Assembly: GCA_035561515.1 (NCBI GenBank)
Contig: DATMXP010000018.1
Span: 104,681 to 168,680 of the forward strand
Length of the DNA: 64,000 nucleotides
Reading direction: 5' to 3'
Source: Terriglobales bacterium
GTDB lineage: Bacteria; Acidobacteriota; Terriglobia; Terriglobales; Acidobacteriaceae
Shown: positions 2,220 to 44,507 of the stretch, in pieces
Layout of the letters: every line of letters starts with the position of its first letter
Position numbering within the stretch: position 1 is the first letter of the stretch
Notes under the pieces: generated by a model
What the model saw: only the letters and a program-made list of their open reading frames with translations
Databases searched by the model: none
Told to the model about the DNA's origin: nothing
Translations under genes and position numbers: made by a program

Positions 2220-4031
2220 ATGAGCACTTCGACTCATCCGGCTACCAGCGGCGGACTGGTGCAGATTGCGCCCAATGATGTACCCAACGGGCGTTCCCTC
2301 GACACTGCGACCCTAGAAGAACTTATTCGCGAACGCGTAGCAGCAGAACGCGCTCGACTCGAACAGCAAGCCGGACTGGTTCACAAACAAGTTCACCACT
2401 TCCACAAGCCCATTGAACGGCCCTTCACAGCCGACCAGCGCGCAAGAACCACGCTGCTCTTCGGCGGACTCACGTGGAAGCACGAGAAACTCGTCCACGG
2501 TGCCCTTGAAGGCCTCGGCTACAAGTGTGAAGTAGTCCCAACGCCCAACGTAGCGGCGTTCCAGCTCGGCAAAGAGTACGGCAACAACGGCCAATGCAAT
2601 CCGACGTACTTCACCGTCGGCAACCTCGTTCAATATCTTCAGAAGCTTGAAGAGTCCGGCGTTCGCCGCGAAGACCTCATCAACAACTACATTTTCCTGA
2701 CCGCCGGCGCGTGCGGTCCGTGCCGTTTCGGCATGTATGAGGCCGAGTATCGGCTCGCGCTCCGCAACTCCGGTTACGACGGCTTCCGCGTCATCCTCTT
2801 CCAACAGTCGGGCGGACTCAACCAGTCCGATGCCGAAGCTGGACTGGAGATGAACCTCGACTTCTTCCTCAACCTGCTGAACGCGCTGAATATGGGCGAC
2901 ATCGTCAATGAAGTCGCGTACCAGATCCGCGGGTTCGAGGTGAACGCCGGCGAAACCGACGGCATCCTGGAAGAGTCAATCGACTACCTCCATGAAGTCC
3001 TCAAGAAGAAGTCTCCGTGGAAGGTCGAAGACGGACTCGGCAAGATTGGCAAGAACATGCCGATGAAGGGAACCGTCGAGTACCTCGGCAAGTTCATCAA
3101 CCAGCTTGTCAGCGACGACTACATGGAAGCGCTGAACCACGTCCGCGATCGCTACAACACGATCCAGGTCGACCGCTTCCGCGTGAAGCCGATCGTGAAG
3201 ATCACCGGCGAATTCTGGGCGCAGACCACCGAAGGTGACGGCAACTTCAACATGTTCCAGTTCCTGCACCGTGAAGGCGCGCAGGTGATCGTGGAGCCGA
3301 TCGGCACCTGGATCATGTACATGATCCACCAGGTAGTCCAGAAAATCAGGGACATGCGCGGCCTCGAAGAGGGCGCGGTCATGCCTCCGAAGTGGCGCCT
3401 CGACAAGCAGGCAAAGATCGAGTGGAACTACCGTCAGAAGCTGATGAAGCTGAAAGCAGCCGAAGTCATCTTTGCGCGTGAATACCACCGCATCATCGAC
3501 GCGCTCGGTGGCACAGCTCACCGCCTGGTTGATCAGTACGAACTCCAGCGGCTCGGACATCCCTACTACAACTCGCGTGCGGGTGGCGGTGAAGGTCACC
3601 TCGAAGTCGCGAAGAACATTTACTACACCAACAAAGAGCTGGCGCACATGGTGCTGTCGCTGAAGCCCTTCGGCTGCATGCCTTCCACGCAGTCAGACGG
3701 CGCTCAGTCGGCGGTCGTGTCGCACTACAAGGACATGATCTTCCTTCCGATCGAAACGTCGGGTGAAGGCGAGATCAACGCGCATAGCCGTGTGCAGATG
3801 GCGCTCGGCGAAGCCAAGGCCAAGGCGAAGCTGGAGTTCGCGGAAGTCGTGAAGAACACCGGCAAGACGCTCGAAGAGCTGAAGGCTTACGTCGAACAAC
3901 GTCCGGAGATGCAGAAGGCGCTGTATCACGTTCCCAAGTACAAGGGCGTGATCGGCACCGCGGCGAACTTCGCGATCCACGTTGCAGAAGCGATGGGCGC
4001 GAAGACTCCGTACCACCAGGAAGCGCACTAA
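2220..4031 (+). CDS. HAD/BCR-family (DUF2229-type) subunit, partner of the fused activase; PlsR/PlsA-partner-like
   Basis: Three spaced Cys motifs GQCNPTYF, ACGPCRFGMY and KPFGCMPS, the same pattern as the C-terminal module of the next gene. SD GAAAGGTGA lies before the ATG. Confidence 0.7.
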   Translation: MSTSTHPATSGGLVQIAPNDVPNGRSLDTATLEELIRERVAAERARLEQQAGLVHKQVHHFHKPIERPFTADQRARTTLLFGGLTWKHEKLVHGALEGLGYKCEVVPTPNVAAFQLGKEYGNNGQCNPTYFTVGNLVQYLQKLEESGVRREDLINNYIFLTAGACGPCRFGMYEAEYRLALRNSGYDGFRVILFQQSGGLNQSDAEAGLEMNLDFFLNLLNALNMGDIVNEVAYQIRGFEVNAGETDGILEESIDYLHEVLKKKSPWKVEDGLGKIGKNMPMKGTVEYLGKFINQLVSDDYMEALNHVRDRYNTIQVDRFRVKPIVKITGEFWAQTTEGDGNFNMFQFLHREGAQVIVEPIGTWIMYMIHQVVQKIRDMRGLEEGAVMPPKWRLDKQAKIEWNYRQKLMKLKAAEVIFAREYHRIIDALGGTAHRLVDQYELQRLGHPYYNSRAGGGEGHLEVAKNIYYTNKELAHMVLSLKPFGCMPSTQSDGAQSAVVSHYKDMIFLPIETSGEGEINAHSRVQMALGEAKAKAKLEFAEVVKNTGKTLEELKAYVEQRPEMQKALYHVPKYKGVIGTAANFAIHVAEAMGAKTPYHQEAH

Positions 4032-4220: not shown

Positions 4221-7200
4221 ATGCCAGGACTGACTGAAAAAGCCAATCCGCAAAAGAAGTACGACTTGCTCTGGATGGGTGTGGACGTAGGCTCCACCAC
4301 CGTGAAGATCACGGTCGTCGACAACGAGACCGACGAGATCCTCTGGGCTGATTACCAGCGCCACGAGACAAAGCAGCCCGAGAAGCTGCTCGAGATGCTG
4401 CACCAGATCAAGAACGACCTGCCCAGCACGCCGTACGAGAACTTCCGCGTGTTCATCACCGGTTCCGGCGGTTCGGGGATTTCCAAGCACATCGGTGCGA
4501 AGTTCGTTCAGGAAGTGAACGCGGTTTCGCTCGCCGTGGAAAAGCTCTATCCAGAGTGCGGTTCGGTGATCGAACTCGGCGGCCAGGACGCGAAGATCAT
4601 CATCTTCAAGGAAGATCCCGAGACCGGCAAAAAGAAGAAGCTGCCGTCCATGAACGACAAGTGCGCGGGCGGCACTGGCGCCGTAATCGACAAGATCAAC
4701 GCCAAGCTGCGCATTCCGGCCGACCAGCTTTGCCAGATGGGCTACGAAGGTCTGAAGCTGCATCCCGTCGCCGGCAAGTGCGGCGTCTTCGCCGAAACCG
4801 ACATTAACGGCCTGCAAAAACAGGGCGTTCCGGCCGACGAGCTGATGGCTTCGCTCTTCGAATCCATCATCCAGCAGAACCTCTCGGTTCTCACGCGTGG
4901 CAACACGCTGCGTCCCACGGTGCTCTTGCTTGGTGGTCCGAATTGCTACATCAAGGGCATGCGCGACTGCTGGAAGCACAACATCCCGAAAATCTGGGAA
5001 GAGCGCAATTACCCGCTGCCCGAAGGCGTGGATCCGAAAGACCTCATCAAGACTCCTGATAACGCGCAGTACTTCGCCTGTATCGGCGCGGTGGAGTTCG
5101 GCAAGAACGAAGATCCCGGACTCGGCACCTATCTCGGCTTCGAAAAGCTCGAGTGGTACATCACGGAAGGTCGTGCGCAGGAAAAGGCGAAAAAGGGTGG
5201 TGCGCAGGCGCTCGCCAAATCGCCCGAAGAACTCGCAGCCTTCAAGCAGAAGTACGCTAAGAAGAAGTTCGTGCCGACCACCTTCCAGCCCGGACAGGTA
5301 GTGGAAGGTTTTATCGGTATCGACGGCGGCTCAACTTCCACGAAGGCTGTGCTCGTGGACAAAGACCGCAACATTCTCTGCAAGACCTACCAGCTTTCGC
5401 GCGGCAACCCAATTGAAGACACGCAGGAAGTTCTGGCGAAGGTCGGCAAGCAGGTTACCGATCAGGGCGCCACGCTCAAGATCATGGGCGTCGGCACCAC
5501 CGGTTACGCGAAGGACATCCTGAAAGATGCCGTCGGGGCTGACGTTGCGCTCGTCGAAACCGTCGCGCACACGCAGGCCGCGTTGCACTTCTATCCAGAT
5601 GCGGATGTGATCTGCGACGTGGGCGGTCAGGACATCAAGATCATCATCCTGAAAGATGGCCGCGTAAAAGATTTCAAGCTCAACACGCAATGCTCCGCCG
5701 GCAACGGATACTTCCTGCAAGGCACGTGCGAAGGCTTCGGCTTCAAGGTCGAGGACTTCGCTGACATCGCCTTCAACGCGAAGGGCTATCCGCAATTCGG
5801 TTACGGCTGCGCGGTGTTCATGCAGTCCGACATCGTGGACTTCCAGCGCCAGGGGTGGAAGCCGGAAGAAATCATGGCCGGGCTTTGCAACGTATTGCCG
5901 AAGAACATTTGGCTGTACGTGTCGCAGATTCCGAACCTGTCGGCGATCGGCCGCAAGTTTGTGTTGCAGGGTGGTACGCAGCACAACATGGCCGCCGTGA
6001 AGTCGCAGGTTGACTTCATCGAGTCGCGCTTCAAGGGTAAGGAAGTTCAGCCAGAAGTCATCGTGCACCAGCATTGCGGCGAGGCGGGCGCAATCGGGTG
6101 CGCGTTTGAAGCCGTGCGTTTATGGGAGAACGGCAAACAGACCGAGTTCATCGGCCTCGAAGGCGTTGCTTCCATCACCTACACGACTACCCGTGAAGAG
6201 AACACGCGCTGTTATTTCTGCAAGAACAAGTGCCTGCGCACATTCATCGACGTGAAAACGGCGGTACCGAACCCGAACTACAAGCCGCCGGTGAAGACCA
6301 AGGTTCCGCTCGCTCCGGGTGCACAGCGACTCATCATCGCCACCTGTGAAAAGGGAACCGTCGAAAACGTCGAAGAGATGCGCGTCATTAAGGGCAACAT
6401 CGACGCCATCAAGAAAGAAAACCCGAACCTCGTCGAGATCGCGGCCAAGAAGGCGTTCACGTCCTACGAGCCGCCGGTCATCGCCGACCCGCTCCCGAAA
6501 CTTCAGATCACGAAAGCGCAAAAAGAACGTGCCGAGAAGATGAAGAACCGTGCCGAGCTACGTATCGGCATGCCCCGCGCACTCAACATGTATTCGTGCG
6601 GGCCATTCTTCACCGCCTACTTTGAGTCGCTGGGTGTAAAGGCCGAGAACATTTTCTGGTCCGAGTACACCAACGAGCAGCTTTACAAGGAAGGCGCGAA
6701 GCGCGGCGCCATCGACCCGTGCTTCCCGTCGAAGGTCGGTATACCGCACGTGCACAACTTGCTGTACTCGGTCCATCCGAAGAAGAAGCTCGACATCATC
6801 TTCTTCCCGATGATCGACTCGCTGCCCACCTTCCTCACGCACACTCAGTCGCAACGCGCATGTCCGACGGTAACGGCTACTCCGGCATCCGTGAAGGCGG
6901 CGTTCACGAAGGAAGGCAATATCTTCGAGGAGAAGGGCGTCATCTGGAAAGACACACTCACCTGTCTCCACGATGAGAAGATCATCCACCGCCAGATGTT
7001 CGACGACTGGAAAGATATCCTCGGCCTCTCCGAAGAAGAAAACTATAAGGCTATCGAAGCCGGACTCGCCGCTATGCGCAAGTTCGACGACGACGTCATG
7101 CGTGGCACCGCTCGTGAAGTCCTGAAGCGGCTCGAAGCCGAAGATCGTCTCGGCATCGTGCTCCTCGGACGTCCGTACCACAACGATCCTGGTATCAACC

Positions 7201-7817
7201 ACGAGATCCTGGAGGAGTTCCAGAAACTCGGCTACCCGGTCTTCTCGCAGGATTCGCTCCCGCTCGATGACGAAATCGTCTGGAAGCTGTTTGGCGACGA
7301 AGTGAAAGCCGGGCACATCCAGCATCCGATGGACGTCAGCGACGCGTGGAAGAACTCGTACTCCGAGAACACCACGCGCAAGGTCTGGGCCGCGAAGTAC
7401 GTCGCGCGGCATCCGAACCTTGTCGCCCTTGAGCTATCCAGCTTCAAGTGCGGTCACGACGCGCCCATCTATACCACGATCGAAGAAATCGTGGAGCACT
7501 CGGGCACGCCGTACTTCTGCTTCAAGGACATCGACGAGAACAAGCCCAGCGGCTCCATCAAGATCCGCGTGGAAACCATCGGCTACTTCCTGAAGCGGTA
7601 TCGCGAAGACATGGTTCGCAACAAGCACAAGAAGTTCACCATTGACGAGCAGCTCAAGAACTTCGAAGAGCAGTTGCGTCACGAGCTTCGCCTTGCTGCA
7701 AGCCTCGGCGGCGAAAAGGGAAGCTGTGGCACCCACAGCAACGCCCCCGCCGAACTGGTAGCGATTCAGGGAGCCCAACCCGTCGGCAATGAAATGGTTG
7801 AGATGGCAGGCGACTAA
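4221..7817 (+). CDS. Fusion protein: two BcrAD/BadFG-type ATPase (activase) domains + Cys-rich linker + DUF2229 HAD/BCR-like module (PlsA-like)
   Basis: Phosphate-1 motifs GVDVGSTTVKI and GIDGGSTSTKAV. Cluster Cys pairs DKCAGGTG/GKCGVFAE and TQCSAGNG/YGCAVFMQS. Linker RCYFCKNKC...ATCEKG. C-terminal motifs DPCFPSK, RACPTV and FKCGHD. SD AAGGGAG. Confidence 0.8.
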   Translation: MPGLTEKANPQKKYDLLWMGVDVGSTTVKITVVDNETDEILWADYQRHETKQPEKLLEMLHQIKNDLPSTPYENFRVFITGSGGSGISKHIGAKFVQEVNAVSLAVEKLYPECGSVIELGGQDAKIIIFKEDPETGKKKKLPSMNDKCAGGTGAVIDKINAKLRIPADQLCQMGYEGLKLHPVAGKCGVFAETDINGLQKQGVPADELMASLFESIIQQNLSVLTRGNTLRPTVLLLGGPNCYIKGMRDCWKHNIPKIWEERNYPLPEGVDPKDLIKTPDNAQYFACIGAVEFGKNEDPGLGTYLGFEKLEWYITEGRAQEKAKKGGAQALAKSPEELAAFKQKYAKKKFVPTTFQPGQVVEGFIGIDGGSTSTKAVLVDKDRNILCKTYQLSRGNPIEDTQEVLAKVGKQVTDQGATLKIMGVGTTGYAKDILKDAVGADVALVETVAHTQAALHFYPDADVICDVGGQDIKIIILKDGRVKDFKLNTQCSAGNGYFLQGTCEGFGFKVEDFADIAFNAKGYPQFGYGCAVFMQSDIVDFQRQGWKPEEIMAGLCNVLPKNIWLYVSQIPNLSAIGRKFVLQGGTQHNMAAVKSQVDFIESRFKGKEVQPEVIVHQHCGEAGAIGCAFEAVRLWENGKQTEFIGLEGVASITYTTTREENTRCYFCKNKCLRTFIDVKTAVPNPNYKPPVKTKVPLAPGAQRLIIATCEKGTVENVEEMRVIKGNIDAIKKENPNLVEIAAKKAFTSYEPPVIADPLPKLQITKAQKERAEKMKNRAELRIGMPRALNMYSCGPFFTAYFESLGVKAENIFWSEYTNEQLYKEGAKRGAIDPCFPSKVGIPHVHNLLYSVHPKKKLDIIFFPMIDSLPTFLTHTQSQRACPTVTATPASVKAAFTKEGNIFEEKGVIWKDTLTCLHDEKIIHRQMFDDWKDILGLSEEENYKAIEAGLAAMRKFDDDVMRGTAREVLKRLEAEDRLGIVLLGRPYHNDPGINHEILEEFQKLGYPVFSQDSLPLDDEIVWKLFGDEVKAGHIQHPMDVSDAWKNSYSENTTRKVWAAKYVARHPNLVALELSSFKCGHDAPIYTTIEEIVEHSGTPYFCFKDIDENKPSGSIKIRVETIGYFLKRYREDMVRNKHKKFTIDEQLKNFEEQLRHELRLAASLGGEKGSCGTHSNAPAELVAIQGAQPVGNEMVEMAGD

Positions 7818-12823: not shown

Positions 12824-12832
12824 ATTTGCGAT

Positions 12833-12867: not shown

Positions 12868-12885
12868 CGAATCGCATTGCGCGAT

Positions 12886-14438: not shown

Positions 14439-14484
14439 TTGACAACCTATACTGTGTTACATACAGTATGTTTCATACAGTATG
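14439..14484 (+). promoter_or_regulatory. Sigma70-like promoter (TTGACA-17-TACAGT) overlapped by a palindromic PadR-type operator
   Basis: TTGACA at 14439-14444 and TACAGT at 14462-14467. Palindrome ATACTGT-N7-ACAGTAT at 14449-14469. Direct repeat CATACAGTATG at 14460-14470 and 14474-14484, the latter including the padR ATG. Confidence 0.5.
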
Positions 14485-24558: not shown

Positions 24559-25482
24559 TTACTTTATGTCTAACATCATGAGAGCCATAAGAATCGGCAG
24601 GTACAAAACTGTTGCCTGCAACAGTTGTCGTGCCGGCGCCTTGGATACAGGCGCGCTCGCCGGAAGCTTCTTCGAAGCCAGTCTCCAGCCAAAGTAAAGA
24701 AGTCCTAGCCCCAACAGAAACGCCCCGAACAAATAGATTCGCCCCGCCATCCCGATTGCTCCAGGCATCATGCTGACGGGAATAAGTGCGATCGAGTACA
24801 GAATTATTTCGCGCGCGGTAGCGCGTCCATCGGCGTAGACCACGGGAAGCATGCGTATATCCGCCCGCTCGTAGTCTTCCCGGTACAGCCACGCGATCGA
24901 ATAAAAGTGCGGGAACTGCCACAGGAAGAGGATGGTGAACAGCAGCACCGCTTCCCAGTCAATACGGTTGCGAAACGCAGCCCAGCCGAGCAGCGGAGGC
25001 ATTGCGCCGGGGAAAGCTCCGATGAAAGTGCAAATCGGCGATACGCGCTTCAAGGGCGTGTACACGCCCAAGTAAACGACGGACGTCGCAAACGTGAGCA
25101 GAGCAGCCAAGGCGTTTGTTGCGAGCCAAAGGTACAAGGTGCCGCCGAAGATCATCACGCCAGCCATGACGCTCGCGTGCATCAGGCTCATACGCTTCGC
25201 AGGCAGCGGACGCTGTGCGGTGCGCCGCATACGAGCATCGCCTTCGCGCTCGATCACTTCGTTGAAGGCAGCAGTTCCGGCAGAGACCAAACCGATTCCG
25301 AACAACGCATGAAACAAAGTCCACGAAAGTGAACTCATGCCCGACTTGTAAGCGCCGAAGTAGAAGCCAGTCCACGCGGTCATCACAATCAGGGTGGTTA
25401 CGCGCAACTTGATCAGTTCGGCGTAATCGCGAAGGAGTGAAGCGAATCCAGAGCGTGGTATTGCCATTGGGACGCTGCTCAT
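24559..25482 (-). CDS. ctaB: Protoheme IX farnesyltransferase (heme O synthase)
   Basis: UbiA-family pattern LIKLRVTTLIVMT...NEVIEREGDARMRRT..RPLP with multiple TM helices. There is a 4-nt overlap with ctaA. Confidence 0.9.
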   Translation of the reverse strand: MSSVPMAIPRSGFASLLRDYAELIKLRVTTLIVMTAWTGFYFGAYKSGMSSLSWTLFHALFGIGLVSAGTAAFNEVIEREGDARMRRTAQRPLPAKRMSLMHASVMAGVMIFGGTLYLWLATNALAALLTFATSVVYLGVYTPLKRVSPICTFIGAFPGAMPPLLGWAAFRNRIDWEAVLLFTILFLWQFPHFYSIAWLYREDYERADIRMLPVVYADGRATAREIILYSIALIPVSMMPGAIGMAGRIYLFGAFLLGLGLLYFGWRLASKKLPASAPVSKAPARQLLQATVLYLPILMALMMLDIK

Positions 25483-26498
25483 GCGGTCACCGCCTTCACG
25501 CCTTTCGAGACTCGTTCTTCACCCAACACCGGAACATGACGCCAAGCCTGGATGGCAAGTACAACAGCCGTTGCCAGGAGCAAGGCACCGACGGCTACGT
25601 GTGCCACGGTGGACCAAACCATGAATGGTTCGGGCTGAACTGCATCACGCCCCCAGACGATCTTGGTCAGGAACGAGATGAACCCGAGGCAAAGCTGAAC
25701 CATGACGAGTCCAAGCATCATGACCGCAGGACGCTTCAGCGACTCAACCTGCGAGTAGTACGAGAGCACTCGTATCGACGTCCAGGTGAGCACAATGGCG
25801 ACTACCGCTGCATTGAAGACGTGTGGTTCCCAACTCATGCCCTTGTGGCGGAACATGCCGCCGAGCGCCAACTGCACATAGAGGACAAGTACGGAAAGGA
25901 GCGTAAGGTTGATCAGCGACGGTTTGCGACGATCGACGGCGGTCCGCTCAACTTCACCGGTGTACTTACGGCCGGTGAGGAGCGCGATGGCAACAGATAT
26001 ACAGAAGAAGGTCTGACCGACAATGGCATGCGCGGTGGAAACCATCGGCGGGAGCAGATGCAACACTGTAACTCCGCCGAGGATGGCCTGCACGATGATG
26101 GTGGCGAACGCGCCTATTGCAAGACGCTTCATCCACTTACGACGGTCGACCATAAGCGTGAAGATGGTGATGCCGAGGGTCAGCAGGATGGTGAAGCCGG
26201 CCATCATGCGGTGTCCGTGCTCGTAGAGGACTCCGCCGACCATCCTGGGCATTCGGAATGTATGAAAACTGGTGGGCCAATCGGGGACGGCGAGGCCGGC
26301 ATCGTTGCTGGTCACAAGGGCGCCTGCGATGATCAGCAGGAACGTCGCGAAAGATGTGAACAGCGCGTAATAATGATGCGCCTTGTTATACGGGGTGGTG
26401 AGCGACGAACGCAGAAGCCTGCTCCTCGTTATTCTTGCTGTTCCAGACCCGCCGGAACAACCGTTTAGTGTATCACTAAGACCTGTGATACCTGTCAC
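25479..26498 (-). CDS. ctaA: Heme A synthase (COX15/CtaA)
   Basis: Eight TM helices with conserved His motifs (LYEHGHRMMAG, TAHAIVG, HVAVGALL). Adjacent to ctaB. Confidence 0.85.
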   Translation of the reverse strand: MTGITGLSDTLNGCSGGSGTARITRSRLLRSSLTTPYNKAHHYYALFTSFATFLLIIAGALVTSNDAGLAVPDWPTSFHTFRMPRMVGGVLYEHGHRMMAGFTILLTLGITIFTLMVDRRKWMKRLAIGAFATIIVQAILGGVTVLHLLPPMVSTAHAIVGQTFFCISVAIALLTGRKYTGEVERTAVDRRKPSLINLTLLSVLVLYVQLALGGMFRHKGMSWEPHVFNAAVVAIVLTWTSIRVLSYYSQVESLKRPAVMMLGLVMVQLCLGFISFLTKIVWGRDAVQPEPFMVWSTVAHVAVGALLLATAVVLAIQAWRHVPVLGEERVSKGVKAVTA

Positions 26499-34162: not shown

Positions 34163-35089
34163 ATGCCCCTTTATCTCGGGATTGACGGCGGAGGCACAAA
34201 AACGACTTGTGCCATCGGGGACGACGCATCTGTGTATGCGGTCGCGAACTCATCTGGCAGCAACATCATTCGGCTCGGCGAAGACAAAGCGCGTGACGCA
34301 TTGCAATCGGTGATCATGGAAGCCTGCGATGTGGCGGGAGTTGACCCGCGCGAAATTACGACGGCTTGCGTCGGTGCAGCGGGAGCAGCGAACCCACAGG
34401 TCAACGCGAAGATTACGCAGATTGTCCGGCAGCTTCTGCCAAAAGCAGATGTGGTGGTAGTGGGTGACATGGTGATCGCCATGGAAGCGACGCTGCACTC
34501 GCAACCGGGAGTGATTGCGATCGCGGGGACTGGGTCAATCGCGTACGGACGCAACGCTCAGGGCGACACGGCGCGCGCAGGCGGTTGGGGTCATGCGATT
34601 TCAGACGAAGGCTCGGGACAGTGGATAGGGCGAACAGCTATTGCTGAAGTGATGCATGCGTGCGACGCAGGCCGCGAAACGGTGCTGTTGGAGCGCGTAC
34701 TAAACACATGGAACCTGGGCACGCGAGATGACCTTATTCGTCATGTGAATGGGACGAAGCCACCGAGTTTCGCAGAGCTGTTCCCGGTGGTTCAGAAATC
34801 CGCCGACGACAAGGACGAGGTGGCGGTTGACGTACTTTCTCGCGCGGGAAAGGAATTGGCGAAGCTGGCTTTGATCGTGGTCCGTAGGCTTTGGAAGCCG
34901 GAAGAGCTTGTGCGGATTGGAGTGGCCGGTGGGATCTTCGCCCATTCGTCGCAGGTACGAAGAGCTTTTTACAACACGATTCGGCGTGGATGGGAGCGAA
35001 CGTCGGTCTGCTTCAAGATCGTTGATCCGGTGATCGGGGCACTTTGGCTGGCACGCAAGCAGGTGCCTGCTGCCGGAGCGAAGAAATGA
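34163..35089 (+). CDS. BadF/BadG/BcrA/BcrD-type ATPase, N-acetylglucosamine-kinase-like sugar kinase
   Basis: LGIDGGGTKTTCAIGD, IAIAGTGSIAYG and GGWGHAISDEGSG. Confidence 0.75.
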   Translation: MPLYLGIDGGGTKTTCAIGDDASVYAVANSSGSNIIRLGEDKARDALQSVIMEACDVAGVDPREITTACVGAAGAANPQVNAKITQIVRQLLPKADVVVVGDMVIAMEATLHSQPGVIAIAGTGSIAYGRNAQGDTARAGGWGHAISDEGSGQWIGRTAIAEVMHACDAGRETVLLERVLNTWNLGTRDDLIRHVNGTKPPSFAELFPVVQKSADDKDEVAVDVLSRAGKELAKLALIVVRRLWKPEELVRIGVAGGIFAHSSQVRRAFYNTIRRGWERTSVCFKIVDPVIGALWLARKQVPAAGAKK

Positions 35090-35841
35090 ATCCAGGGACT
35101 CAGCGCGCGCCAGACTCCAATTTCGCGCTGATCGAGCGGTTGCTGCACAGCCACTCGGAGGATGATCTTCGCGCTGTCGCCTCGAATCCGCACCTGACAG
35201 AGGACCTTGCGAAGGCATTTCTCGCCCGTCGTGATCTGCCCGGTACGGCGTTGCAGGACCTTTCCAAGAATGCGAACGCCATGAAGAACCGGGCTGTGAT
35301 CGTGGGCATCGTGTCGCATCCGCGAACGCCAAGATTCGTGTCGCTGCCAGTGGCGCGGCATCTGTTTCCGTTCGAACTTATGACGGTGGCCATGCAACCG
35401 GCGGTTCCCGCCGATGTGAAAATGGCGATCGAACATATCCTGGTGGACAAGGTGGAACAGCTTTCGCTCGGAGAACGGATCACGCTTGCGAAGCGCGGTC
35501 CAACGCGGGTGGCAGAGGCGCTTCTCCGGGACAAGGAATTACGGGTTGTTGAGACGGCCCTGCTGAATCCATACCTGGTTGAGGCGTGCATCATTCGCAC
35601 ACTGATGCAAGATGAGATCGACATACGGTTCGTGGAGATGATCGCAAGGCATCCGAAGTGGAGTTTACGAACCGACGTGAGATGCGCATTGCTGCGGAAC
35701 GCAAACACTCCGATGGCGGTAGCGCTACAACTGGCACACACGTTGCCTGCGGATGTTGCGCGGGACGCGCTCTTCCATTCGAACCTGCCGCAGAGCGTAA
35801 AGACTTACCTGATGGCGGAAATTCAACACCGCGCGCGTTAA
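35086..35841 (+). CDS. Helical repeat protein (leucine-rich-repeat-variant/HEAT-like), function unknown
   Basis: Recurring NP(H/R)(L/T)P-type repeat starts (SNPHLTEDLAKAF, SHPRTPRFVSL, LLNPYLVEACI, RNANTPMAVALQL). ATGA overlap with the upstream stop. Confidence 0.5.
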   Translation: MNPGTQRAPDSNFALIERLLHSHSEDDLRAVASNPHLTEDLAKAFLARRDLPGTALQDLSKNANAMKNRAVIVGIVSHPRTPRFVSLPVARHLFPFELMTVAMQPAVPADVKMAIEHILVDKVEQLSLGERITLAKRGPTRVAEALLRDKELRVVETALLNPYLVEACIIRTLMQDEIDIRFVEMIARHPKWSLRTDVRCALLRNANTPMAVALQLAHTLPADVARDALFHSNLPQSVKTYLMAEIQHRAR

Positions 35842-37160
35842 TCTGCGGCTACTTCCGCTCCGAAACAAGCTGGGTACTTCCGCTCATGAGGCTTCTTCTC
35901 TTTATAAGAGCGAGCCAGTTCCATGTAGATGCCCAAGTCGCGATCAAGGTCGGACTGAGTGCCGTCGAAGTAGAAATTGCGGATCGGGATGCCGCCGTAG
36001 TCCTTGCTCAGCTTGGGATATATGGCTTCGCTCACGATGCCGTTCATGCAGGTAAAGGGGCTGATGTCGACGATGCCATCGGCGCCGTTTTTGGCCAGCC
36101 ACGCGGCTTTTCCGACGCTCAACACCATCTCTCCAAGTGCGCCGTTGGCGGGAAGATAGGGCCAGGCGAGTTCAAGGACTTCAGCAATGGGTGGCTCTTC
36201 GTACCCGATGAAATCTTCGTGAAAAGGTTTTGCGAGTGTGTGCTCATCTGAGTGCTGCACGTACGCGCGGATCTTTTCCTTGAGCATGCTGAGGGACATT
36301 CCGCGACCGACCATGATGAGCTTCCGGCTGACTTCGTTGTTGGTGTAAGAGATCCACTCGGCGATGTCGCTGAGCCGGGCTTCGGCGCCGTAACCTTCCA
36401 GTTTGCGGACGAGGTCGTCGTTGCTGAAATTGTTCAGGCGACAGAAGATCTCGCCGACGACGCCAATCAGTACGCCATCCGTTGTGTAGTGGGCGGGAAC
36501 CTTACGGAAACGGTCGCTGGCGCGCTCCATGCCTTGGACCAGTTGTTTCATGGCGCAACCGGTGTCTCCACACATGCCCTCGATCACGTGGGACATGTCC
36601 TCGATGGAGTCCCAAAAGGCCTTATCGGCTGCGCCGGGCGTGGTCTCGTACGGACGTGTCTTCAGCAAGGCCTTGCGGAAGATATCGGCAATGACAAGGG
36701 CGCGGAAGGCAGCGCGAACGAAATCACCGCCGAAGTCGCCGAAACCGGCATAGCCGTTCTGGCTAGTTGGCGAGAGTACCTGGACGGTGTCGTGTCCCGA
36801 TTGTTGCAGGATCTTACGGAGGTAAGGAGCGTACTGCCCAAAACGGCATGGACCCTGAGCGGTCGCCATGAATAAGACCGTTTTGGAAGGATCGACCCCG
36901 GGCCGTTCGAGAATGCGGGCGAAGTCTCCCACGGTGATCTTCGCCGGATAACATTCATCACCATTGGTGTACTTGCCGCCCAGTTCGAGCGTGCGCTCGG
37001 TGGAAGGCGGCGTTGGATGAGCGTCGATTCCGAGCCAACGGAAAACGGCACTGAACAACTCGACGCTGCCTTCGGCCATGGCAGGTACGTAAACGGTCTT
37101 TCCGGCGAGCTGATGGTCGGCGCTTATCCGGCGACTGCTGTGGCTGTGGCGGATGGGCAT
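35838..37160 (-). CDS. HAD/BCR-family (DUF2229-type) subunit, second copy (partner of the 1024-aa activase fusion)
   Basis: Cys motifs GDECYPAKI, GPCRFGQY and SPFTCMNG. 37-nt overlap with the upstream gene. Confidence 0.7.
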   Translation of the reverse strand: MPIRHSHSSRRISADHQLAGKTVYVPAMAEGSVELFSAVFRWLGIDAHPTPPSTERTLELGGKYTNGDECYPAKITVGDFARILERPGVDPSKTVLFMATAQGPCRFGQYAPYLRKILQQSGHDTVQVLSPTSQNGYAGFGDFGGDFVRAAFRALVIADIFRKALLKTRPYETTPGAADKAFWDSIEDMSHVIEGMCGDTGCAMKQLVQGMERASDRFRKVPAHYTTDGVLIGVVGEIFCRLNNFSNDDLVRKLEGYGAEARLSDIAEWISYTNNEVSRKLIMVGRGMSLSMLKEKIRAYVQHSDEHTLAKPFHEDFIGYEEPPIAEVLELAWPYLPANGALGEMVLSVGKAAWLAKNGADGIVDISPFTCMNGIVSEAIYPKLSKDYGGIPIRNFYFDGTQSDLDRDLGIYMELARSYKEKKPHERKYPACFGAEVAAD

Positions 37161-40100
37161 CGTAAGAATCCTTTGCTATCGAGATATGCTTCGCAACGGG
37201 TGATGAACCCGGCATCGTTGGCGTGTCCGTCGAATTGCAGGATGAGGCCAGGTTTACCGGCGGCATCGTCGACGAAGGACTTGATGTAGGAATCGGGGCC
37301 GCATTTGAAGTTCGAAATGAACACAAGATGCAGGTTCGGGTTGCGACGCGCGATATTCGCGGCAGCGAGAATCCTGCGGCCGGAATTCCAATACATGTTG
37401 TCGTTGTATTCCGAAATATCCTCATCTTCCAACGGGAGGAAGTCGAGCGGTACAACGTTGACGCCGTATTGGGTCCGCAACTTGCGGGGGATGTCGCAGT
37501 TCACGCTTCGGTCGTAGATGTTGTAAGGGCGGCCAATGAGGATCAGAGCAGGTTCGTCGCTGTTATTGAGAAGCTGCAGTGCTTCGGCGCCTTTCCACAA
37601 GAGCGACTGGGCGAATTGTTTTTGGGCTGCGTAGGCAGAATCTACCGCGCGGTCGCTAACGCGCTTGCTGATTCCCAAGGCTTCCTTCGCATAATGCCCG
37701 AGTTCCTTCTTTACGTGCTCGACGCCGAGTTTGAAATGGACCGTCGGCGCAAGGACGCGGTCAGCGTAAGCTTCCATCTGTGAAGTGGAGCGGACTACGA
37801 ACGGGAGCGTCTGGTTCCACGGACAGAGGAAGGATTCGCTGCCGTCGTTCGGCGACTCCTGATTGACCGTGTTCGGGAGGAAGATGTAGTCGGTACCATT
37901 GTCGACCAGATATTGAACGTGCCCGTGCGCCACCTTAACGGGAAAACAAGGCTGTGCCACAGCCATCTCGTCGCCCACGGCCGATATCTTGCGATCGGTT
38001 TGCGGCGACGTGACCACGTCGAATCCGAGTTCCTGTAAGTAAGCGCACCAGAAGGGGAAGCGGTCGAAGTAGAACATGGTGCGCGGGATACCGATTGTCT
38101 TGCCGCCGCGAGGCGGACGCAGTACTTCCTCGAGGGCCTTATCGCGGAACTCGACCAGATCTTCGATGACGGGGATTCGATCGGTTCGGGCGCGTTTACG
38201 GAACTTGTCGGAACACTTGTCGCCCCAGTAGCTCTTGTTGCCTTCGATCTTGAATTCCTTGATGTCGCAGAAGTTCGAGCAGGCCTGGCAGACGAACTCG
38301 CGGGTAGTGAAGTCCACGCGTTCAAGGTCGTAACCGCGGAACTTGCTGGGCTGGCTCGAGCTCGCCATCTTATCGCGGGCGATAAGGGCCATGCCGATGG
38401 CGCCAATTACGCCGTTGTGCGGCGGGACGATGATCTTCTTATCAAGAATTTGAGAGAAAGCAGCGGCGACAGCATCGTTGTATGCGGTTCCGCCCTGGAA
38501 GAAGATGACATCGCCGATCTTTCTTCCGCGGACGACCCGGTTGAGGTAATTCAACACGACTGAATACGCCAGCCCGGCGGCGAGATCGCCTACTTCCGCG
38601 CCCTTGAGCAACAGGCTGGTGACGTCGCGCTCCATAAACACGGTGCAGCGTTCGCCCAGGCGGGCAGGATTCTTCGAATCAAGTGCCAGCTGAGCGAATT
38701 CGCCCTTGATGGAGATGCCCAGCTTTTCTGCCTGCTCTTCGAGGAAGGATCCGGTTCCGGCGGCACAGGCTTCATTCATGGTGAAGTCGACGACTACACC
38801 CTTGTCGAGGCGAATGAACTTGGAATCCTGTCCGCCGATTTCGAAGATGGTGTCGACGGGCTTCATGCCAAGGATATGACAGACGTGGGTGGAGCCGGTC
38901 TTATGGGCGGTAATTTCGTCGTTGACGGTGTCGGCACCGATGAGTTCGCCGATCAGTTCACGTCCGGAGCCGGTGGTCCCAACGCCGCGAATGTCGAGGC
39001 GGTCGGCTATGAGTTCCTCGATTTCCTGAAGACCCTTTTGAACGACCTCGATGGGACGTCCCTGCGTGCGTAGATAGATTTCGTGGAGAAGATTACCGTG
39101 CTGATCGATGACGACCAGGTTGGTACTGACGGAGCCGATGTCAATTCCCAGATAAGCAGGGACCCTAGTGCCGGCGGGCGGCAGCGGCGGATCTTTCACG
39201 TGATCGCGGAGCATGACGACCTTCTCCATGGAGAGCGGGTCACTGCACGCGAAGTTCTGCTTGCCCGTGTGCTGCTTCAGTTGGTGAATGCGCTTGAAAG
39301 TGCGCTTGCGCCATTCCTCGGATTCGAACATGGCGGCGCCGAGAGCACCCATCCAAGCGTGAAATTGCGGGACGAGAAAGTCGCCATCATTAAGCTTGAA
39401 TGCCTCCTGCATGGCTTTCTTGACCGCCTCGTTTTGCGCAACGCCACCGATGAAAGCGACGGGTGTGGTGACGGCACGTCCCTTCACGATGGCGGACTTG
39501 AAGTTACGCGCGACGGCGTCGCAGAGGCCACGAAGGATCTGGTCCGTGGTGTAGCCCTTCTGCTGGGCGTGAATCATGTCAGACTTGGCGAAGACGGAGC
39601 AGCGACCGGCGACGCGAGCGGCGCAGGAGGCTCCGCAAGCGACAGGACCAACTTCGTCGACCTTATAAAGTAGGCGAGTGGCCTGCTGATCGATGAAGGA
39701 GCCGGTACCCGCAGCGCAGTCACCACTGGAGGAGTAGTCGGTGATTCCGAGATAACGCGACTTGTTGGTGGGCTCGAGGCGGATGTACTTCGACGATTCG
39801 CCTCCCATTTCGAAGACAGTCCGTACTTCGGGATAAAACGTGCGGACACCCTTAGCAACGGCGCGAAACTCGTTCTCGAAATAGATGCCGAGGATTTTGG
39901 CGATCAACTGGCTGCCGGATCCGGTGACACGAATGCCTTCCACGGTCTCTTCGGGAACGTGCTCATACAGTTCGCGAAGGAGGTCGAAGGTGGACTGAAT
40001 CGGACTCCCCTGGATGCGACGGTATTTCGAGAGCACCAGTGGCCGTTCAGAGAAATCGGTGTTGGCGGGAAATGCAGCAGGGAAGAATTCTTTGTTTGCC

Positions 40101-40198
40101 TGGGTGAGCCGGCGAATGGCGGGCACATCTTCAGGCGTTCCCATGGCCGCCAGTTTCAAACTGACAGCTCCTATGTCTAATCCGATATTAATGCTCAT
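37124..40198 (-). CDS. Fusion protein: two BcrAD/BadFG ATPase domains + Cys-rich linker + DUF2229 module, second copy (PlsA-like)
   Basis: GLDIGAVSLKL and GIDIGSVSTNLV. GDCAAGTG/GRCSVFAKS and EACAAGTG/ERCTVFMER. Linker VCQACSNFC...DKCSDKF. C-terminal QPCFPVK, FLCPWN and FKCGPD. Confidence 0.8.
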   Translation of the reverse strand: MSINIGLDIGAVSLKLAAMGTPEDVPAIRRLTQANKEFFPAAFPANTDFSERPLVLSKYRRIQGSPIQSTFDLLRELYEHVPEETVEGIRVTGSGSQLIAKILGIYFENEFRAVAKGVRTFYPEVRTVFEMGGESSKYIRLEPTNKSRYLGITDYSSSGDCAAGTGSFIDQQATRLLYKVDEVGPVACGASCAARVAGRCSVFAKSDMIHAQQKGYTTDQILRGLCDAVARNFKSAIVKGRAVTTPVAFIGGVAQNEAVKKAMQEAFKLNDGDFLVPQFHAWMGALGAAMFESEEWRKRTFKRIHQLKQHTGKQNFACSDPLSMEKVVMLRDHVKDPPLPPAGTRVPAYLGIDIGSVSTNLVVIDQHGNLLHEIYLRTQGRPIEVVQKGLQEIEELIADRLDIRGVGTTGSGRELIGELIGADTVNDEITAHKTGSTHVCHILGMKPVDTIFEIGGQDSKFIRLDKGVVVDFTMNEACAAGTGSFLEEQAEKLGISIKGEFAQLALDSKNPARLGERCTVFMERDVTSLLLKGAEVGDLAAGLAYSVVLNYLNRVVRGRKIGDVIFFQGGTAYNDAVAAAFSQILDKKIIVPPHNGVIGAIGMALIARDKMASSSQPSKFRGYDLERVDFTTREFVCQACSNFCDIKEFKIEGNKSYWGDKCSDKFRKRARTDRIPVIEDLVEFRDKALEEVLRPPRGGKTIGIPRTMFYFDRFPFWCAYLQELGFDVVTSPQTDRKISAVGDEMAVAQPCFPVKVAHGHVQYLVDNGTDYIFLPNTVNQESPNDGSESFLCPWNQTLPFVVRSTSQMEAYADRVLAPTVHFKLGVEHVKKELGHYAKEALGISKRVSDRAVDSAYAAQKQFAQSLLWKGAEALQLLNNSDEPALILIGRPYNIYDRSVNCDIPRKLRTQYGVNVVPLDFLPLEDEDISEYNDNMYWNSGRRILAAANIARRNPNLHLVFISNFKCGPDSYIKSFVDDAAGKPGLILQFDGHANDAGFITRCEAYLDSKGFLRCPSATATAVAG

Positions 40199-40628
40199 AA
40201 GGGCTCAACCGGATTTAAGAGACATATGTCTTAGGGGTCTGTGACATAGAGCACGAGCGGGTGTGAGCACGTTATCGACGTCGTGAAGGGAAGCAATTGA
40301 ACGGCATAGAACCAACATTCATTGGTGTAAAACGGCTGGTGAATGGGGACACCGAGCGGATGGTGCGAAGGAAAAAATATTTGCGGAAATCGCTGTTGTG
40401 GTGCCGTAAAGGACGCATGAGACGCGGGGAAGCGCTTGCGAATTGATGGCACTCCAGATGGCAAACGAGCCGCAAAAGCAATCGGCGAGAGTAGTTATCA
40501 GTCAAACGATTTGCCTTCCATGAAAGTGAAGGTACCAACGTAAATATCTGCATCCCTTGCGTTTAGCGATACGATTTCAGCAACGGACTTCAGGGGGAGA
40601 TTTGCGAAACCAGATTCTTCGATATTCC

Positions 40629-41249
40629 ATGGCGAACATGCTTGTGTTGTCGATGCTGAGCTATTGCTCCGCGTCGACGGTAGGCATGCTTTACGTAAAG
40701 GGAGATGTGCAGGTCGACGGCATAGCCGTGAAGGATTCCCTGGCGGTTACCGCTGGATCGGTGATTAAGGTAGCGGACAACGGGACGGCGAATCTGAAAA
40801 TAAACTCCACCTCTATTTATGCGGTTAAGAATACGAGTTTTCGTTACAGCAATCCCTTCGAACTTGTGCTGGATAGTGGCGGGTTATTCGTGAACACGGA
40901 TGAGCAGGTGCAGACGAACCTGGGTAACTGCGGTTCGGTGGCTCCGGTAAACGTCGGTTCAGCGGGCAAGTTCACGAAATACGAGATACAGGTGGAGGGC
41001 AGCAAGGGTTATGTGTACGCCCGTGAACTGCCGGTGACGGTGAAAGCCGGAGGCAAGGTGATCGAGCTACAGAGTGGGACGGTGGCGGTCATAGAAGGGT
41101 TTGGCAATCCGAATTGCACCGCAATGTATTACGATTCGATGGAAAAGCTTCCTGAGTCGGCCAAGGCAATTTTGATTGGTTCCTACACAGCGGCGATCGT
41201 CTTCGCGGCTTATCCCTACGATCAGGCGATCAGCGCCTCGAAGCCCTAG
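40629..41249 (+). CDS. Hypothetical exported protein with a C-terminal anchor; possible FecR-like beta-sandwich
   Basis: A hydrophobic N-terminus, beta-rich segments (YVKGDVQVDG...AGSVIKVADNGTANLKI), and C-terminal helix AILIGSYTAAIVFAAYPY. The start is uncertain (TTG 40557 vs ATG 40629). Confidence 0.4.
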   Translation: MANMLVLSMLSYCSASTVGMLYVKGDVQVDGIAVKDSLAVTAGSVIKVADNGTANLKINSTSIYAVKNTSFRYSNPFELVLDSGGLFVNTDEQVQTNLGNCGSVAPVNVGSAGKFTKYEIQVEGSKGYVYARELPVTVKAGGKVIELQSGTVAVIEGFGNPNCTAMYYDSMEKLPESAKAILIGSYTAAIVFAAYPYDQAISASKP

Positions 41250-41298
41250 TTATTCCTTCTAAAATGAGTTTTTCGCCTGCACCGAAAAGGCGGCAGGT

Positions 41299-41324
41299 GG
41301 AACTATGTCCGGTGTTTTCACGTA
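41299..41324 (+). promoter_or_regulatory. Candidate ECF-type promoter (GGAAC-N17-CGTA) upstream of the sigma factor gene
   Basis: The AAC...CGT spacing fits ECF autoregulated promoters. It is a single occurrence and I could not compare it with other promoters. Confidence 0.3.
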
Positions 41325-41373
41325 CTTTCTAGCAGGCACTCGTTAATAATTCTCCGTTTCGAGAGTCATCGTT

Positions 41374-41937
41374 ATGAAAGCTGAACCCGGAGGTCGAATG
41401 GCGGCCGCCTGCGACTCAATTACGACTACCCAAGCGTCCATGATGCTCGAGCAACTGTTCTGGAACCATCACAAACGCGTGCTGCGTGCCGCTTACCGGA
41501 TCACCGGTAACATGGCCGATGCCGAAGATGTGGTGCAGTCGGTATTCATCCGGCTAGCCAGCGCAGGGCAGGACCAGATCGAAAACGCAGAGAGCTATCT
41601 GTATCGCGCAGCGATCAACGGAGCGCTGGATGTAATCCGGCGGCGCAAGGGCGAGATGGAGTTGGAATCGGCGTCGGAGTTGGCGTCGGTTTCGCCGCAC
41701 TTTTCTCCGGAACGTCAACTGAATAGGCAAGAACTGCAGTCCTGGCTGAGGAAGGCATTGGCTGGGCTGAGTCCAGTGGCGGCGGAGATGTTTGTTCTCC
41801 GGTTCATTGAAGAGAAGGACAACGGTGAGATTGCCCGCATTGTAGGGACGTCGCGGGCGGTCGTTGCCGTAAGGCTGCACCAAGTCCGGGCGAAGCTGAA
41901 GAAAGACTTTCAGCGTTTCATGCGAGGCGAACGATGA
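41374..41937 (+). CDS. ECF (sigma-70 family) RNA polymerase sigma factor
   Basis: Region 2 is VLRAAYRITGNMADAEDVVQSVFIRL...YLYRAAINGALDVIRRR. Region 4 is AAEMFVLRFIEEKDNGEIARIVGTSRAVVAVRLHQVRAKL. Confidence 0.85.
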   Translation: MKAEPGGRMAAACDSITTTQASMMLEQLFWNHHKRVLRAAYRITGNMADAEDVVQSVFIRLASAGQDQIENAESYLYRAAINGALDVIRRRKGEMELESASELASVSPHFSPERQLNRQELQSWLRKALAGLSPVAAEMFVLRFIEEKDNGEIARIVGTSRAVVAVRLHQVRAKLKKDFQRFMRGER

Positions 41938-44507
41938 ACGGGACTAATAAAGATAGGCAAGATCTGGATGCGGCGATCAACGCGATGCGGAACGATCAGC
42001 CGACTGATGAGCAAGTAAACAGCGCCACAGGCCGCCTGTGGCAGAAGATGCAGTCGGCGGAGGTTGAAGCGCCGGAGATTATCCATGGCTGCGAGGACGT
42101 GGTGCGCTTGCTTCCGGCGTACGCGAACCGAGCGCTTTCCGGGCAGCGCATGCTGCTGGTGGAAGCACATCTTCGCGATTGCGTTTCCTGCAGGCGGAAA
42201 GCCGAAGGCCGCGAGAGCGCGCAGGTGCTGAAGTGGGCTCCGGTGGAGTCTGCTAAAACGTCGGCGGCATGGCCACGCTGGGCACTGGCTGCGGCAGTAG
42301 TGATCTTCGCGGTGCTAGGTTTCTACGTCAACAACGCGTACTTCGCAGTGCCCGCAGGAGCGCGCGGCACGTTGCAGTCACTTGAAGGAACAGCATTCCT
42401 GGTGACCCCGAACGGAGATCGCGTTGTAACGGCGGGGCAGGTGCTGAATGAGGGTGACGTTCTGCGGACGGCTTCGGATTCCCACGCGTATGTGAGATTG
42501 AGCGATGGGTCGCTGGTGGAAGTCCGGGAGCGGAGCGAATTGGCGGTGAAGGCGCGTGGAAGGGACACGACGATTGCACTCGATCGTGGGGCCGTGATCA
42601 TCCAAGCGGCAAAGCGAGACTCGGGACACTTGTATGTAAAGACGCCCGATTCTCGTGTAGCTGTCACCGGCACTGTGTTTTCCGTGAATGCCGGCGTGAA
42701 GGGAACCCGTGTGTTCGTGGTTGAAGGCGCCGTTGAAGTGCAACATGGTGGGAGTGACGATTTGTTGCACGCGGGTGATCAGGTCGCTACGGGCGAGAAC
42801 ATGGCCAATGTTTCCGCGGCTTCGGAACTCGCCTGGAGCAAGGATCTCTCGAAGCACCTGGAACTGCTGGCGCAATTTAAGCAGCTCGAGAAGAAACTCG
42901 AACAGGTAACTCTGCCAGCTCCCCGATACGAAAGTCGATTGCTGGGGAGAATGCCAGCCGATGCGGTGATCTATGCAAGTCTTCCTAATGCCGGACAGGC
43001 GCTGGAAGACGCGAACAGAATCTTCCAGGACCAGATCGAGCAGAGCGCGGCGCTTCGTGAGTGGTTTACTCACGGCGATGCGCACGCGGCGGCGAAGATG
43101 AACGAAACCATCGCGAAGATTCGGGCCTTGAGCGACTATCTGGGGAACGAAGTGGTGGTGGTCGGTTTCGGTGGGCCGGAATCGGGTATGGCAATCGTGG
43201 CTGAAGTGGAGCGCCCGGGCTTGCGTGAATTCCTGCAATCACAGTTCAAAAGCTCCGACGGCCAACCTGACATGCTTGTGATCGACGAGGCGCAGCTTGG
43301 GACGGTACCTGCGGGCTATCGAGGACTGATTGCATTGATCCGGCAGAACGAGGTTGTGTTCTCCGGCAATCACGGCAATGCCCTGGCGAAAGTGAATGCG
43401 CAGTTGAATTCAAGTGCAGCGGGACTGGACAAGACCGCATTCGGGCAACGGTTACTGGAAGCTTACAACCGTGGCGCGGGGTTCGTATTCGCAGCCGACC
43501 TGAAGACGCTGATCGCCGAGAAGAAAGCCCGGCACGTGAAGCAGGGGCGGCCACAGGTGGCGATGGCGAGAACCGGGCTCGAAAATATGCGTTACCTGGT
43601 GCTTGAACACCGCGAACTGAACCAAGTTCCCGAGAACCGTATGGTGCTGGACTTTGCAGGCCAGCGTTATGGAGTTCCTTCGTGGCTCGCAGCGCCGGCA
43701 CCGATGGGGTCACTTGAGTTCGTCTCGCGGAATGCTTCGGTCGCGATCGCATTGCTGGCGAAAGATCCGCAAGCGATTATGACGGATATCTTCAGCATGG
43801 GTGGCAATCCGGCGAAACAGCAGGCGCACCTCGCTGAGGCGGAGTCCAAACTCAGGCTGCGTATTCGGGAAGACCTGGCCGCACACTTCGGCGGTGATAT
43901 TGTGTTCGCGCTGGATGGGCCGGTGCTTCCGATGCCATCCTGGAAGCTGGTTATCGAAGTTCATGATGCCGCCAGACTGCAGGCTTCGCTGGAAACGCTG
44001 GTGGGTAGCTTCAACCAGGAGGCACAACAGCATGGGAAGCCGGGGCTGGACCTGAAGGCTGAAGATGTGAACGGCCAAAGGTACTACACTCTGCAGCCGA
44101 GGAGCACGAAAGCCAAGCCCTTCTACTACACCTACAGTGCTGGATACATGATTGCGGGTCCGGATCGCGCGACCGTGATGAATACCCTGCGAGTTCGTGC
44201 AACCGGGGATTCTTTGGCGAGATCAGGCGAGTTCAAGGCGCTGTTGCCGAAGGACGAAAACGCCAACTATTCCGTGATTGCGTACCAGAACCTGGCTCCG
44301 ATTTTGCAGCCGCTGACGTCGGTGGTTAACGGCCAGCAAGCTAAGGTGTTACAGGAATTGGCAGCCGATTCACGGCCGAGCGTAATCTGCGGATGGGGAA
44401 GAGAGAATCAGATCGAGGCCATTACGAACAGCCGGTTCATCGGCTTTGACTGGCTGGCTCTCACTTCCTTGTTTTCCAAAGGAACAACTAACAGGCAAAC
44501 TCCGTAA
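41934..44507 (+). CDS. Anti-sigma factor: zf-HC2 (ZAS) motif + TM helix + FecR domain + large (about 550 aa) extracytoplasmic domain
   Basis: HLRDCVSC (HxxxCxxC), [18 protein letters not shown], and FecR motifs [24 protein letters not shown]...[10 protein letters not shown]...[12 protein letters not shown] coupling to the sigma gene. Confidence 0.75.

Follow-up and report, generated by a model that had tools for sequence, protein, structure and literature searches.

The stretch of DNA analysed here (64,000 nucleotides of contig DATMXP010000018.1, assembly GCA_035561515.1, from a Terriglobales bacterium of the phylum Acidobacteriota; hereafter the window) carries a pair of overlapping genes, designated Set 2, which probably encodes a lipid-ester reductase of the PlsA/PlsR-Ger family. 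This family is part of the benzoyl-CoA reductase/2-hydroxyacyl-CoA dehydratase superfamily. A second and only distantly related pair of the same family, Set 1, is present in the window as well. Several PlsA/Ger homologues per genome, as well as acidobacterial homologues, are already documented. New are three points derived from the sequence comparisons presented below: the two acidobacterial sets come from different deep subfamilies; Set 2 is an offshoot, monophyletic and with split genes, of a subfamily of fused proteins; and in the Set 2 clade an adjacent gene supplies the second reductase domain that acidobacterial "BBD-only" hits have been said to lack. The acidobacterial "PlsA/Ger homologues" thus comprise two deeply separated subfamilies, both of which can occupy one genome.

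The origin of the ether bonds in acidobacterial brGDGTs (branched glycerol dialkyl glycerol tetraethers) and related lipids is a standing question; such lipids underpin palaeoclimate proxies, and the acidobacterial candidate genes for ether bond formation have so far been named only by means of loose BLAST thresholds. Set 2 itself is a typical and well-conserved representative of this large, already known family; it is no new kind of system and reveals no new mechanism.

Organization of Set 2

The A gene of Set 2 (37124..40198, minus strand) encodes a fusion protein of 1024 amino acids (aa) with two activase-type ATPase domains, a four-cysteine linker and a DUF2229 (Red1) domain, and the R gene (35838..37160, minus strand) encodes a PlsR-like partner (Red2) of 440 aa. 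The initial annotation of this DNA had described the pair in this order, with an overlap of 37 nt, and both the open reading frame (ORF) table and direct reading of the sequence agree with it: the ATG of the partner is at 37160, the stop codon of the fusion is at 37124, and the two genes share 37124..37160 on the minus strand. The sequence AAGGA lies 8-12 nt upstream of this ATG. At its other end, Set 2 overlaps with a convergent ORF (35086..35841, plus strand) in a TTAA that contains both stop codons; this overlap was seen at 35838..35841, as annotated. All motifs that had been quoted for Set 2 and Set 1 were found in the translations, and the cysteines in these motifs occupy alignment columns that do not vary between Set 2, Set 1 and a PlsA/PlsR pair of Clostridium. 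At NCBI, the identical 1024-aa protein carries the name "acyl-CoA dehydratase activase [Terriglobales bacterium]".

Domain architecture and conserved cysteines of the fusion protein

As references, we retrieved validated or closely related genes using published cloning primers as exact DNA patterns. This yielded the plsA-plsR operon of Clostridium sp. LIBA-8841 (locus L002; plsA of 975 aa, an 8-nt gap, plsR of 420 aa), which is orthologous to the C. perfringens operon, and the Enterococcus faecalis plsA gene (locus L005; 1415 aa, both primer ends match).

The fusion protein has two PF01869/BcrAD_BadFG domains (E 1.8e-67) and a PF09989/DUF2229 domain (E 1.2e-56) in Pfam, and also a TIGR00241 match in NCBIfam. 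Taken together, the two databases assign these domains to the Set 1 fusion as well. All its parts are encoded on the minus strand. ATPase domain 1 (residues ~1-295, 39314..40198) corresponds to the second PF01869 stretch, includes a benz_CoA_red_D match at residues 83-291 and contains the putative cluster cysteines C161 and C200. ATPase domain 2 (residues 350-607, 38378..39151), the best PF01869 stretch, contains C478 and C518. It is followed by a linker with four cysteines (C637-x2-C640-x3-C644 and C662; 38213..38290), recognized in the alignments, and by the DUF2229/Red1 domain (residues ~701-1000, 37199..38098; PF09989 at 701-920) with the triad C751, C792 and C966. Sequence matches of the fusion protein in the PDB are confined to the ATPase domains and correspond to the activators HgdC, HadI, MbdQ/MbdP and DCCP-R; for ATPase domain 2, the activators MbdQ, HadI and HgdC match residues 351-616.

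In a three-way alignment of Set 2, Set 1 and Clostridium PlsA, C161, C200, C478, C518, C637, C640, C644, C751, C792 and C966 are invariant. Set 2 therefore possesses the tandem activase of the PlsA/PlsR-Ger family, i.e. two PF01869 domains with two invariant cysteines each, and also the DUF2229 domain with its invariant cysteine triad in the same chain as the ATPase domains. All four linker cysteines, C662 included, are invariant in 70 fused relatives and 118 orthologues (see below), and this linker is a possible site for an additional Fe-S cluster or for Zn.

The phosphate-1 motif in ATPase domain 1 of Set 2 is a variant, LDIGAVSLK (residues 4-16, 40100-40198), where Set 1 and the PlsA proteins of Firmicutes have GSTT(V/L)K, and this domain also contains an insertion of ~30 residues (residues ~20-50, ~40050-40140). 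Since the motif is conserved to 96-99% in the orthologues, one nucleotide site may differ from the other in its function. Furthermore, there are clade-specific extra cysteines conserved to 98-100%, C188, C192, C226, C901 and C1002 in the fusion and C197, C202 and C240 in the partner (the "MCGDTGC" stretch), which are candidates for a further metal site or for disulfides.

The partner protein

The partner has a weak PF09989 match at residues 33-90 (E 1.8e-6), and the same faint N-terminal DUF2229 match is found in Clostridium PlsR (residues 33-84, E 1e-5). It is 22% identical to Clostridium PlsR (E 3e-27) and 28% identical to residues 1041-1374 of E. faecalis PlsA (E 2e-32), and its cysteine triad C70, C105 and C371 is invariant in the alignment with the Set 1 partner and Clostridium PlsR. 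A sequence search of the PDB with the partner gave no match. Its AlphaFold2 model (pLDDT 82.9, pTM 0.88) was compared with the PDB using Foldseek, and all six significant matches were catalytic subunits, namely those of DCCP (6ENO, 7YYL) and BzdNO (8S02, 8S2R). The probability of these six was 1.0, with modest TM-scores of 0.37-0.43 and an identity of 10-13%; the next match had an E-value of 0.056. The overlapping gene thus encodes a second reductase half, with PlsR homology, an invariant cysteine triad and a DCCP/BzdNO-like fold.

The initial annotation as a PlsA/PlsR-like module is supported by the same domain architecture, the same cysteine skeleton and the weak DUF2229 match of the partner, which resembles that of a real PlsR. 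By comparison, the features of a 2-hydroxyacyl-CoA dehydratase or a class I benzoyl-CoA reductase are missing: PF06050 (HGD-D) has no match above threshold in the fusion protein and none in the partner even at E-values up to 10, the activator of Set 2 is fused to a catalytic domain, and the NCBIfam scores for benzoyl-CoA reductase subunits are far under the cut-offs.

These data bear on the interpretation of genome surveys. In Acidobacteriota, "BBD-only" hits have been interpreted to be without the second reductase domain (bioRxiv 10.64898/2026.06.23.733905). For the Set 2 clade studied here, this is likely to be a screening error, as the adjacent overlapping gene, which is annotated only as "hypothetical protein", encodes the second reductase domain. 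Genome screening should be changed to take this gene into account, and Set 2 offers a clean two-gene construct.

Set 2 and Set 1 in the PlsA/PlsR-Ger family

Set 1 was expected about 28 kb from Set 2 on the opposite strand, and we measured 28.0 kb between them. It consists of a 603-aa partner (2220..4031, plus strand), which is without a Pfam match and shares the three invariant cysteines, and a 1198-aa fusion protein (4221..7817, plus strand) with two PF01869 domains and PF09989. Immediately downstream of Set 1, a convergent ORF of 721 aa (7882-10047, minus strand) has no Pfam match. In BLASTP, the fusions of the two sets are 29% identical (E 6e-64) and the partners 24% (E 4e-20). The "permuted order" ascribed to Set 2 is true only relative to Set 1. 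In the plsA-plsR operon of Clostridium as well as in the fused PlsA of E. faecalis, the part with the ATPase and DUF2229 domains precedes the PlsR part. The order of Set 2 is therefore canonical, and Set 1 is the permuted, enlarged type.

When 1.84 billion representatives were searched exhaustively with HMMER, 1594 matched the Set 2 fusion at E <= 1e-30, and the best 150 of these are 35-58% identical to it. Most of the full-length proteins among these best 150 (107 of 133) are fused chains of ~1350-1460 aa with a PlsR-like C-terminal part. The identity of these representatives to Set 1 and to the PlsA proteins of Clostridium and E. faecalis is only ~29-31%. Seventy fused relatives were aligned and have the same invariant cysteine pattern as Set 2, with nearly identical motifs. 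A profile search from this alignment led to chains of 1393-1436 aa, the named ones of which come from metagenome-assembled genomes (MAGs) of Desulfobacterota, Thermodesulfobacteriota and Syntrophaceae; further named fused relatives are from MAGs of Sumerlaeota, Polyangia and Pseudomonadota.

Neighbour-joining trees (92 bootstraps, midpoint root) were calculated with taxa picked by their similarity to Set 2. Set 2 and six split-type representatives (~1015-1057 aa) form a clade in 92/92 bootstraps, nested among the fused proteins, and {Set 1, Clostridium, E. faecalis} is split from all others in 92/92 bootstraps. Set 1 thus groups with the validated PlsA proteins of Firmicutes. Over 911 shared columns, the Set 2 fusion is 27.9% identical to Set 1, 31.1% to Clostridium PlsA and 32.0% to E. 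faecalis PlsA, and the Set 1 fusion is 35.3% and 35.5% identical to the latter two, respectively. As judged from these comparisons, Set 2 is the split-gene form of a large subfamily with mostly single chains of ~1400 aa. The initial annotation had called for a pairwise alignment and a family tree and had suggested an old paralogy or an independent acquisition rather than a recent duplication; an identity of 28-29% and the position of the two sets on opposite sides of the 92/92 split support an ancient paralogy, and a recent duplication of Set 1 into Set 2 is ruled out by the same data.

Conservation of Set 2 and its origin

Orthologues of the Set 2 proteins were collected for the fusion (118 sequences, 68-88% identical, 1020-1032 aa) and for the partner (120 sequences, 67-83% identical, 431-441 aa). 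All 13 predicted ligand cysteines are 100% conserved in them, and the ATPase motifs are conserved to 94-100%. In a Nei-Gojobori comparison with the related locus L016, the rate of nonsynonymous substitutions (dN) is 0.10 and that of synonymous ones (dS) ~1.6 for the fusion, and 0.24 and ~1.8 for the partner. As dS is saturated, the dN/dS ratio (omega) is at most ~0.06 and ~0.13, respectively. Judging by these values, Set 2 is intact and under purifying selection. Its GC content (57-58%), the GC content at third codon positions (GC3, 70%) and its codon usage are like those of neighbouring host genes.

The presence of two copies in one genome and the frameshifted partner in one distant relative (L015) could be taken as signs of redundancy and decay, with Set 2 as a mere duplicate of Set 1, but we regard this as extremely improbable: the two sets are 28-29% identical and belong to different subfamilies, the lengths of the orthologues are constant, dN/dS is only 0.06-0.13, and the cysteine ligands and ATPase motifs, whose loss in orthologues had been proposed as a sign of decay, are conserved to 100% and 94-100%, respectively, in the ~120 orthologues of each protein. 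A decaying copy was rejected because of this ligand conservation and the low dN/dS. A recent gain by horizontal transfer from a donor of the Desulfobacterota type is very unlikely, too. Indeed, most named proteins of the fused subfamily around Set 2 come from Desulfobacterota and Thermodesulfobacteriota MAGs, but among MAGs of Terriglobales/Terriglobia the split form is common, at 67-88% identity, and Set 2 has a downstream syntenic block in common with L016. As GC, GC3 and codon usage are also host-like, which led us to reject a recent transfer, any transfer would have been ancient.

Proposed function of Set 2

Homology with the other members of the superfamily suggests how Set 2 may work. 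A single [4Fe-4S] cluster, with C161/C200 and C478/C518 as its ligands, would bridge the two ATPase domains of the fusion protein. This cluster would take an electron from a low-potential donor, and ATP hydrolysis would push it into a catalytic pair made up of the DUF2229 domain (C751/C792/C966) and the partner (C70/C105/C371). There, reduction of the ester carbonyl of an acyl chain in a membrane glycerolipid would pass through a ketyl radical and give a vinyl ether or an alkyl ether, most likely only under low oxygen. Such a substrate is suggested by the fact that the characterised proteins with this architecture all produce plasmalogens or alkyl ethers, starting from glycerolipid esters (PMC12838417, PMC13159169, PMC11150832). 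According to the literature, the sequence does not currently allow PlsA to be distinguished from Ger (PMC13274423).

Several observations weigh against a lipid-ester reductase. Set 2 is only 30-32% identical to the validated PlsA proteins and lies on the other side of the 92/92 split, i.e. it does not group with the plasmalogen synthases. Ger2 of Desulfatibacillum alkenivorans, a close paralogue of the Ger protein of this species, gave no ether lipid in E. coli, and family membership is therefore no guarantee of ether-lipid activity. No lipid-synthesis gene and no radical-SAM Tes/Mss gene was found in the 64-kb window or in eight related loci, among them L003, L004, L015, L016 and the loci of three fused relatives, L018-L020. 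The last point carries little weight, because validated plsA operons are stand-alone as well. Finally, the window contains genes for a UbiA-family protohaem farnesyltransferase and COX15/CtaA (24559-26498), the enzymes of haem O and haem A synthesis. The host thus builds haem-copper oxidases and respires oxygen, yet it has two copies of an enzyme of an oxygen-sensitive class.

Alternatively, the substrate of this ATP-driven Fe-S reductase machinery may be no lipid but, for instance, a CoA ester or some other small molecule that is unsaturated or has a carbonyl group; Set 2 would then be unconnected with ether lipids. We consider this possible but less likely. Besides the inactivity of Ger2 on lipids, this would be consistent with the identity of only ~30% to any validated enzyme and with the best fold matches, which are found in a superfamily containing benzoyl-CoA reductases, hydroxyacyl-CoA dehydratases and double-cubane reductases. 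In addition, an aldo-keto reductase gene adjoins the partner gene in L004, L016 and L017, and a PaaK-like CoA ligase is encoded two genes downstream in L015; these neighbours, however, are not conserved, being absent from L003 and the window. Every characterised protein with the BBD core plus R acts on glycerolipid esters, PF06050 is missing above threshold, and the lack of lipid genes next to Set 2 says little, as stated above. A lipid-ester reductase is therefore our preferred interpretation.

Set 1 and Set 2 may even be two specialised ether-bond-forming enzymes, e.g. for the sn-1 and sn-2 positions or for a diester and the membrane-spanning iso-diabolic tetraester, with Set 2, as the Desulfobacterota/Ger-like type, supplying the missing ester-to-alkyl-ether step of brGDGT synthesis under low oxygen in subdivision-1 Acidobacteria. 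This division of labour is speculative, and we consider it rather unlikely.

Comparison with known systems

One of the closest known systems is the plasmalogen synthase of C. perfringens with PlsA (Q8XL47, 1004 aa) and PlsR (Q8XL48, 420 aa), for which the orthologous operon of Clostridium sp. LIBA-8841 served in the comparisons. As in Set 2, the Clostridium enzymes are encoded by two genes in the order A and R (975-1004 and 420 aa vs 1024 and 440 aa), all ligand cysteines are present, and R has the same faint DUF2229 match. However, Set 2 is only 30-31% (A) and 22% (R) identical to them and lies on the opposite side of the 92/92 split, and the Clostridium genes are 8 nt apart, whereas those of Set 2 overlap by 37 nt. 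The PlsA protein of E. faecalis (Q835P9 type), a fused plasmalogen synthase validated in E. coli, has the domain order A and R and the cysteine skeleton of Set 2, and the Set 2 partner aligns with it at residues 1041-1374. In contrast to Set 2, it is a single chain of 1415 aa, and the identity is 30-32% for A and 26-28% for R.

Ger proteins of Thermotoga maritima (Tmari_0479/AGL49404) and D. alkenivorans (SHJ90043) are validated alkyl-ether synthases that consist of the BBD core followed by the second reductase half and work anaerobically. The D. alkenivorans Ger and Ger2 have molecular masses of 159 and 153 kDa, respectively. The fused relatives of Set 2 show the BBD-H-D pattern in Pfam and resemble the published architecture of Ger (which we compared by description only) in this pattern, in size (1393-1436 aa) and in including the phylum of D. 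alkenivorans. Unlike Set 2, Ger is a single chain.

In Acidobacteria, Acid_0922 (1188 aa) and Acid_0921 (589 aa) of Solibacter usitatus have been proposed as a PlsAR/Ger homologue. Halamka et al. report them as the only hits in this species at E < 1e-10. They share phylum and enzyme family with Set 2, but their sizes are those of the Set 1 type (603 and 1198 aa). Because no other hit was found at this threshold, S. usitatus, a brGDGT producer, appears to lack a pair of the Set 2 type.

More distant relatives are the double-cubane cluster protein DCCP and its activator DCCP-R (6ENO, 7YYL) and the class I benzoyl-CoA reductases BzdNOPQ/MbdONQP (8S02, 9GAI), in which an ATP-hydrolysing ASKHA dimer injects electrons into an Fe-S catalytic module, as proposed for Set 2. 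DCCP and benzoyl-CoA reductase are the best structural matches of the partner and the best sequence matches of the ATPase domains, but they differ from Set 2 in having separate activator and catalytic proteins and in their substrates.

Gene neighbourhood and related loci

In the related loci L003, L004, L015, L016 and L017, the A and R genes form a conserved unit while their neighbours change. The pair is overlapping in L003 (1026 and 440 aa), has sizes of 1060 and 406 aa in L004, and of 1020 and 440 aa in L016 and L017, with an overlap as in Set 2 seen in L016. In the more distant relative L015 (47% identity; 11072-12275 and 12318-14505), the partner is in two frames (155 and 257 aa), owing to a frameshift or to a sequencing error; downstream of it lie a TauE-family gene and the gene for the PaaK-like AMP-binding CoA ligase. 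The aldo-keto reductase gene mentioned above is located right after the partner gene in L004 (13450-14274), L016 (11345-12310) and L017 (2976-3941). It is on the same strand without a gap in L004 and convergent in L016 and L017; neither the window nor L003 has it at this position.

The block downstream of Set 2 in the window (genes for a BadF-type kinase, an SSF symporter, an amino-acid permease, glycogen synthase, KsgA, Memo and UbiA) is present in L016 and not shared by the other related loci. The NagK-like BadF-type kinase gene (34163-35089) and the 252-aa helical ORF after it (35086-35841) overlap by ATGA, if the ORF starts at the ATG at 35086, which suggests translational coupling. The helical ORF has only a sub-threshold DUF2336 match. 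L016 and L017 contain the same pair, with a kinase of 305-330 aa and an ORF of 257 aa.

On the other side of Set 2 (40557-44507), a 230-aa ORF without a Pfam match is divergent from it. Next come the gene for an extracytoplasmic function (ECF) sigma factor (41374-41937) and, overlapping it by 4 nt, that for an anti-sigma-like protein of 857 aa (zf-HC2, FecR). A TetR-type regulator like that reported upstream of E. faecalis plsA is not present beside Set 2. At the beginning of the window (53-1645, plus strand), a papain-like peptidase domain of the AvrRpt2 type (C70) and an N-acetylmuramoyl-L-alanine amidase domain are encoded in a single ORF.

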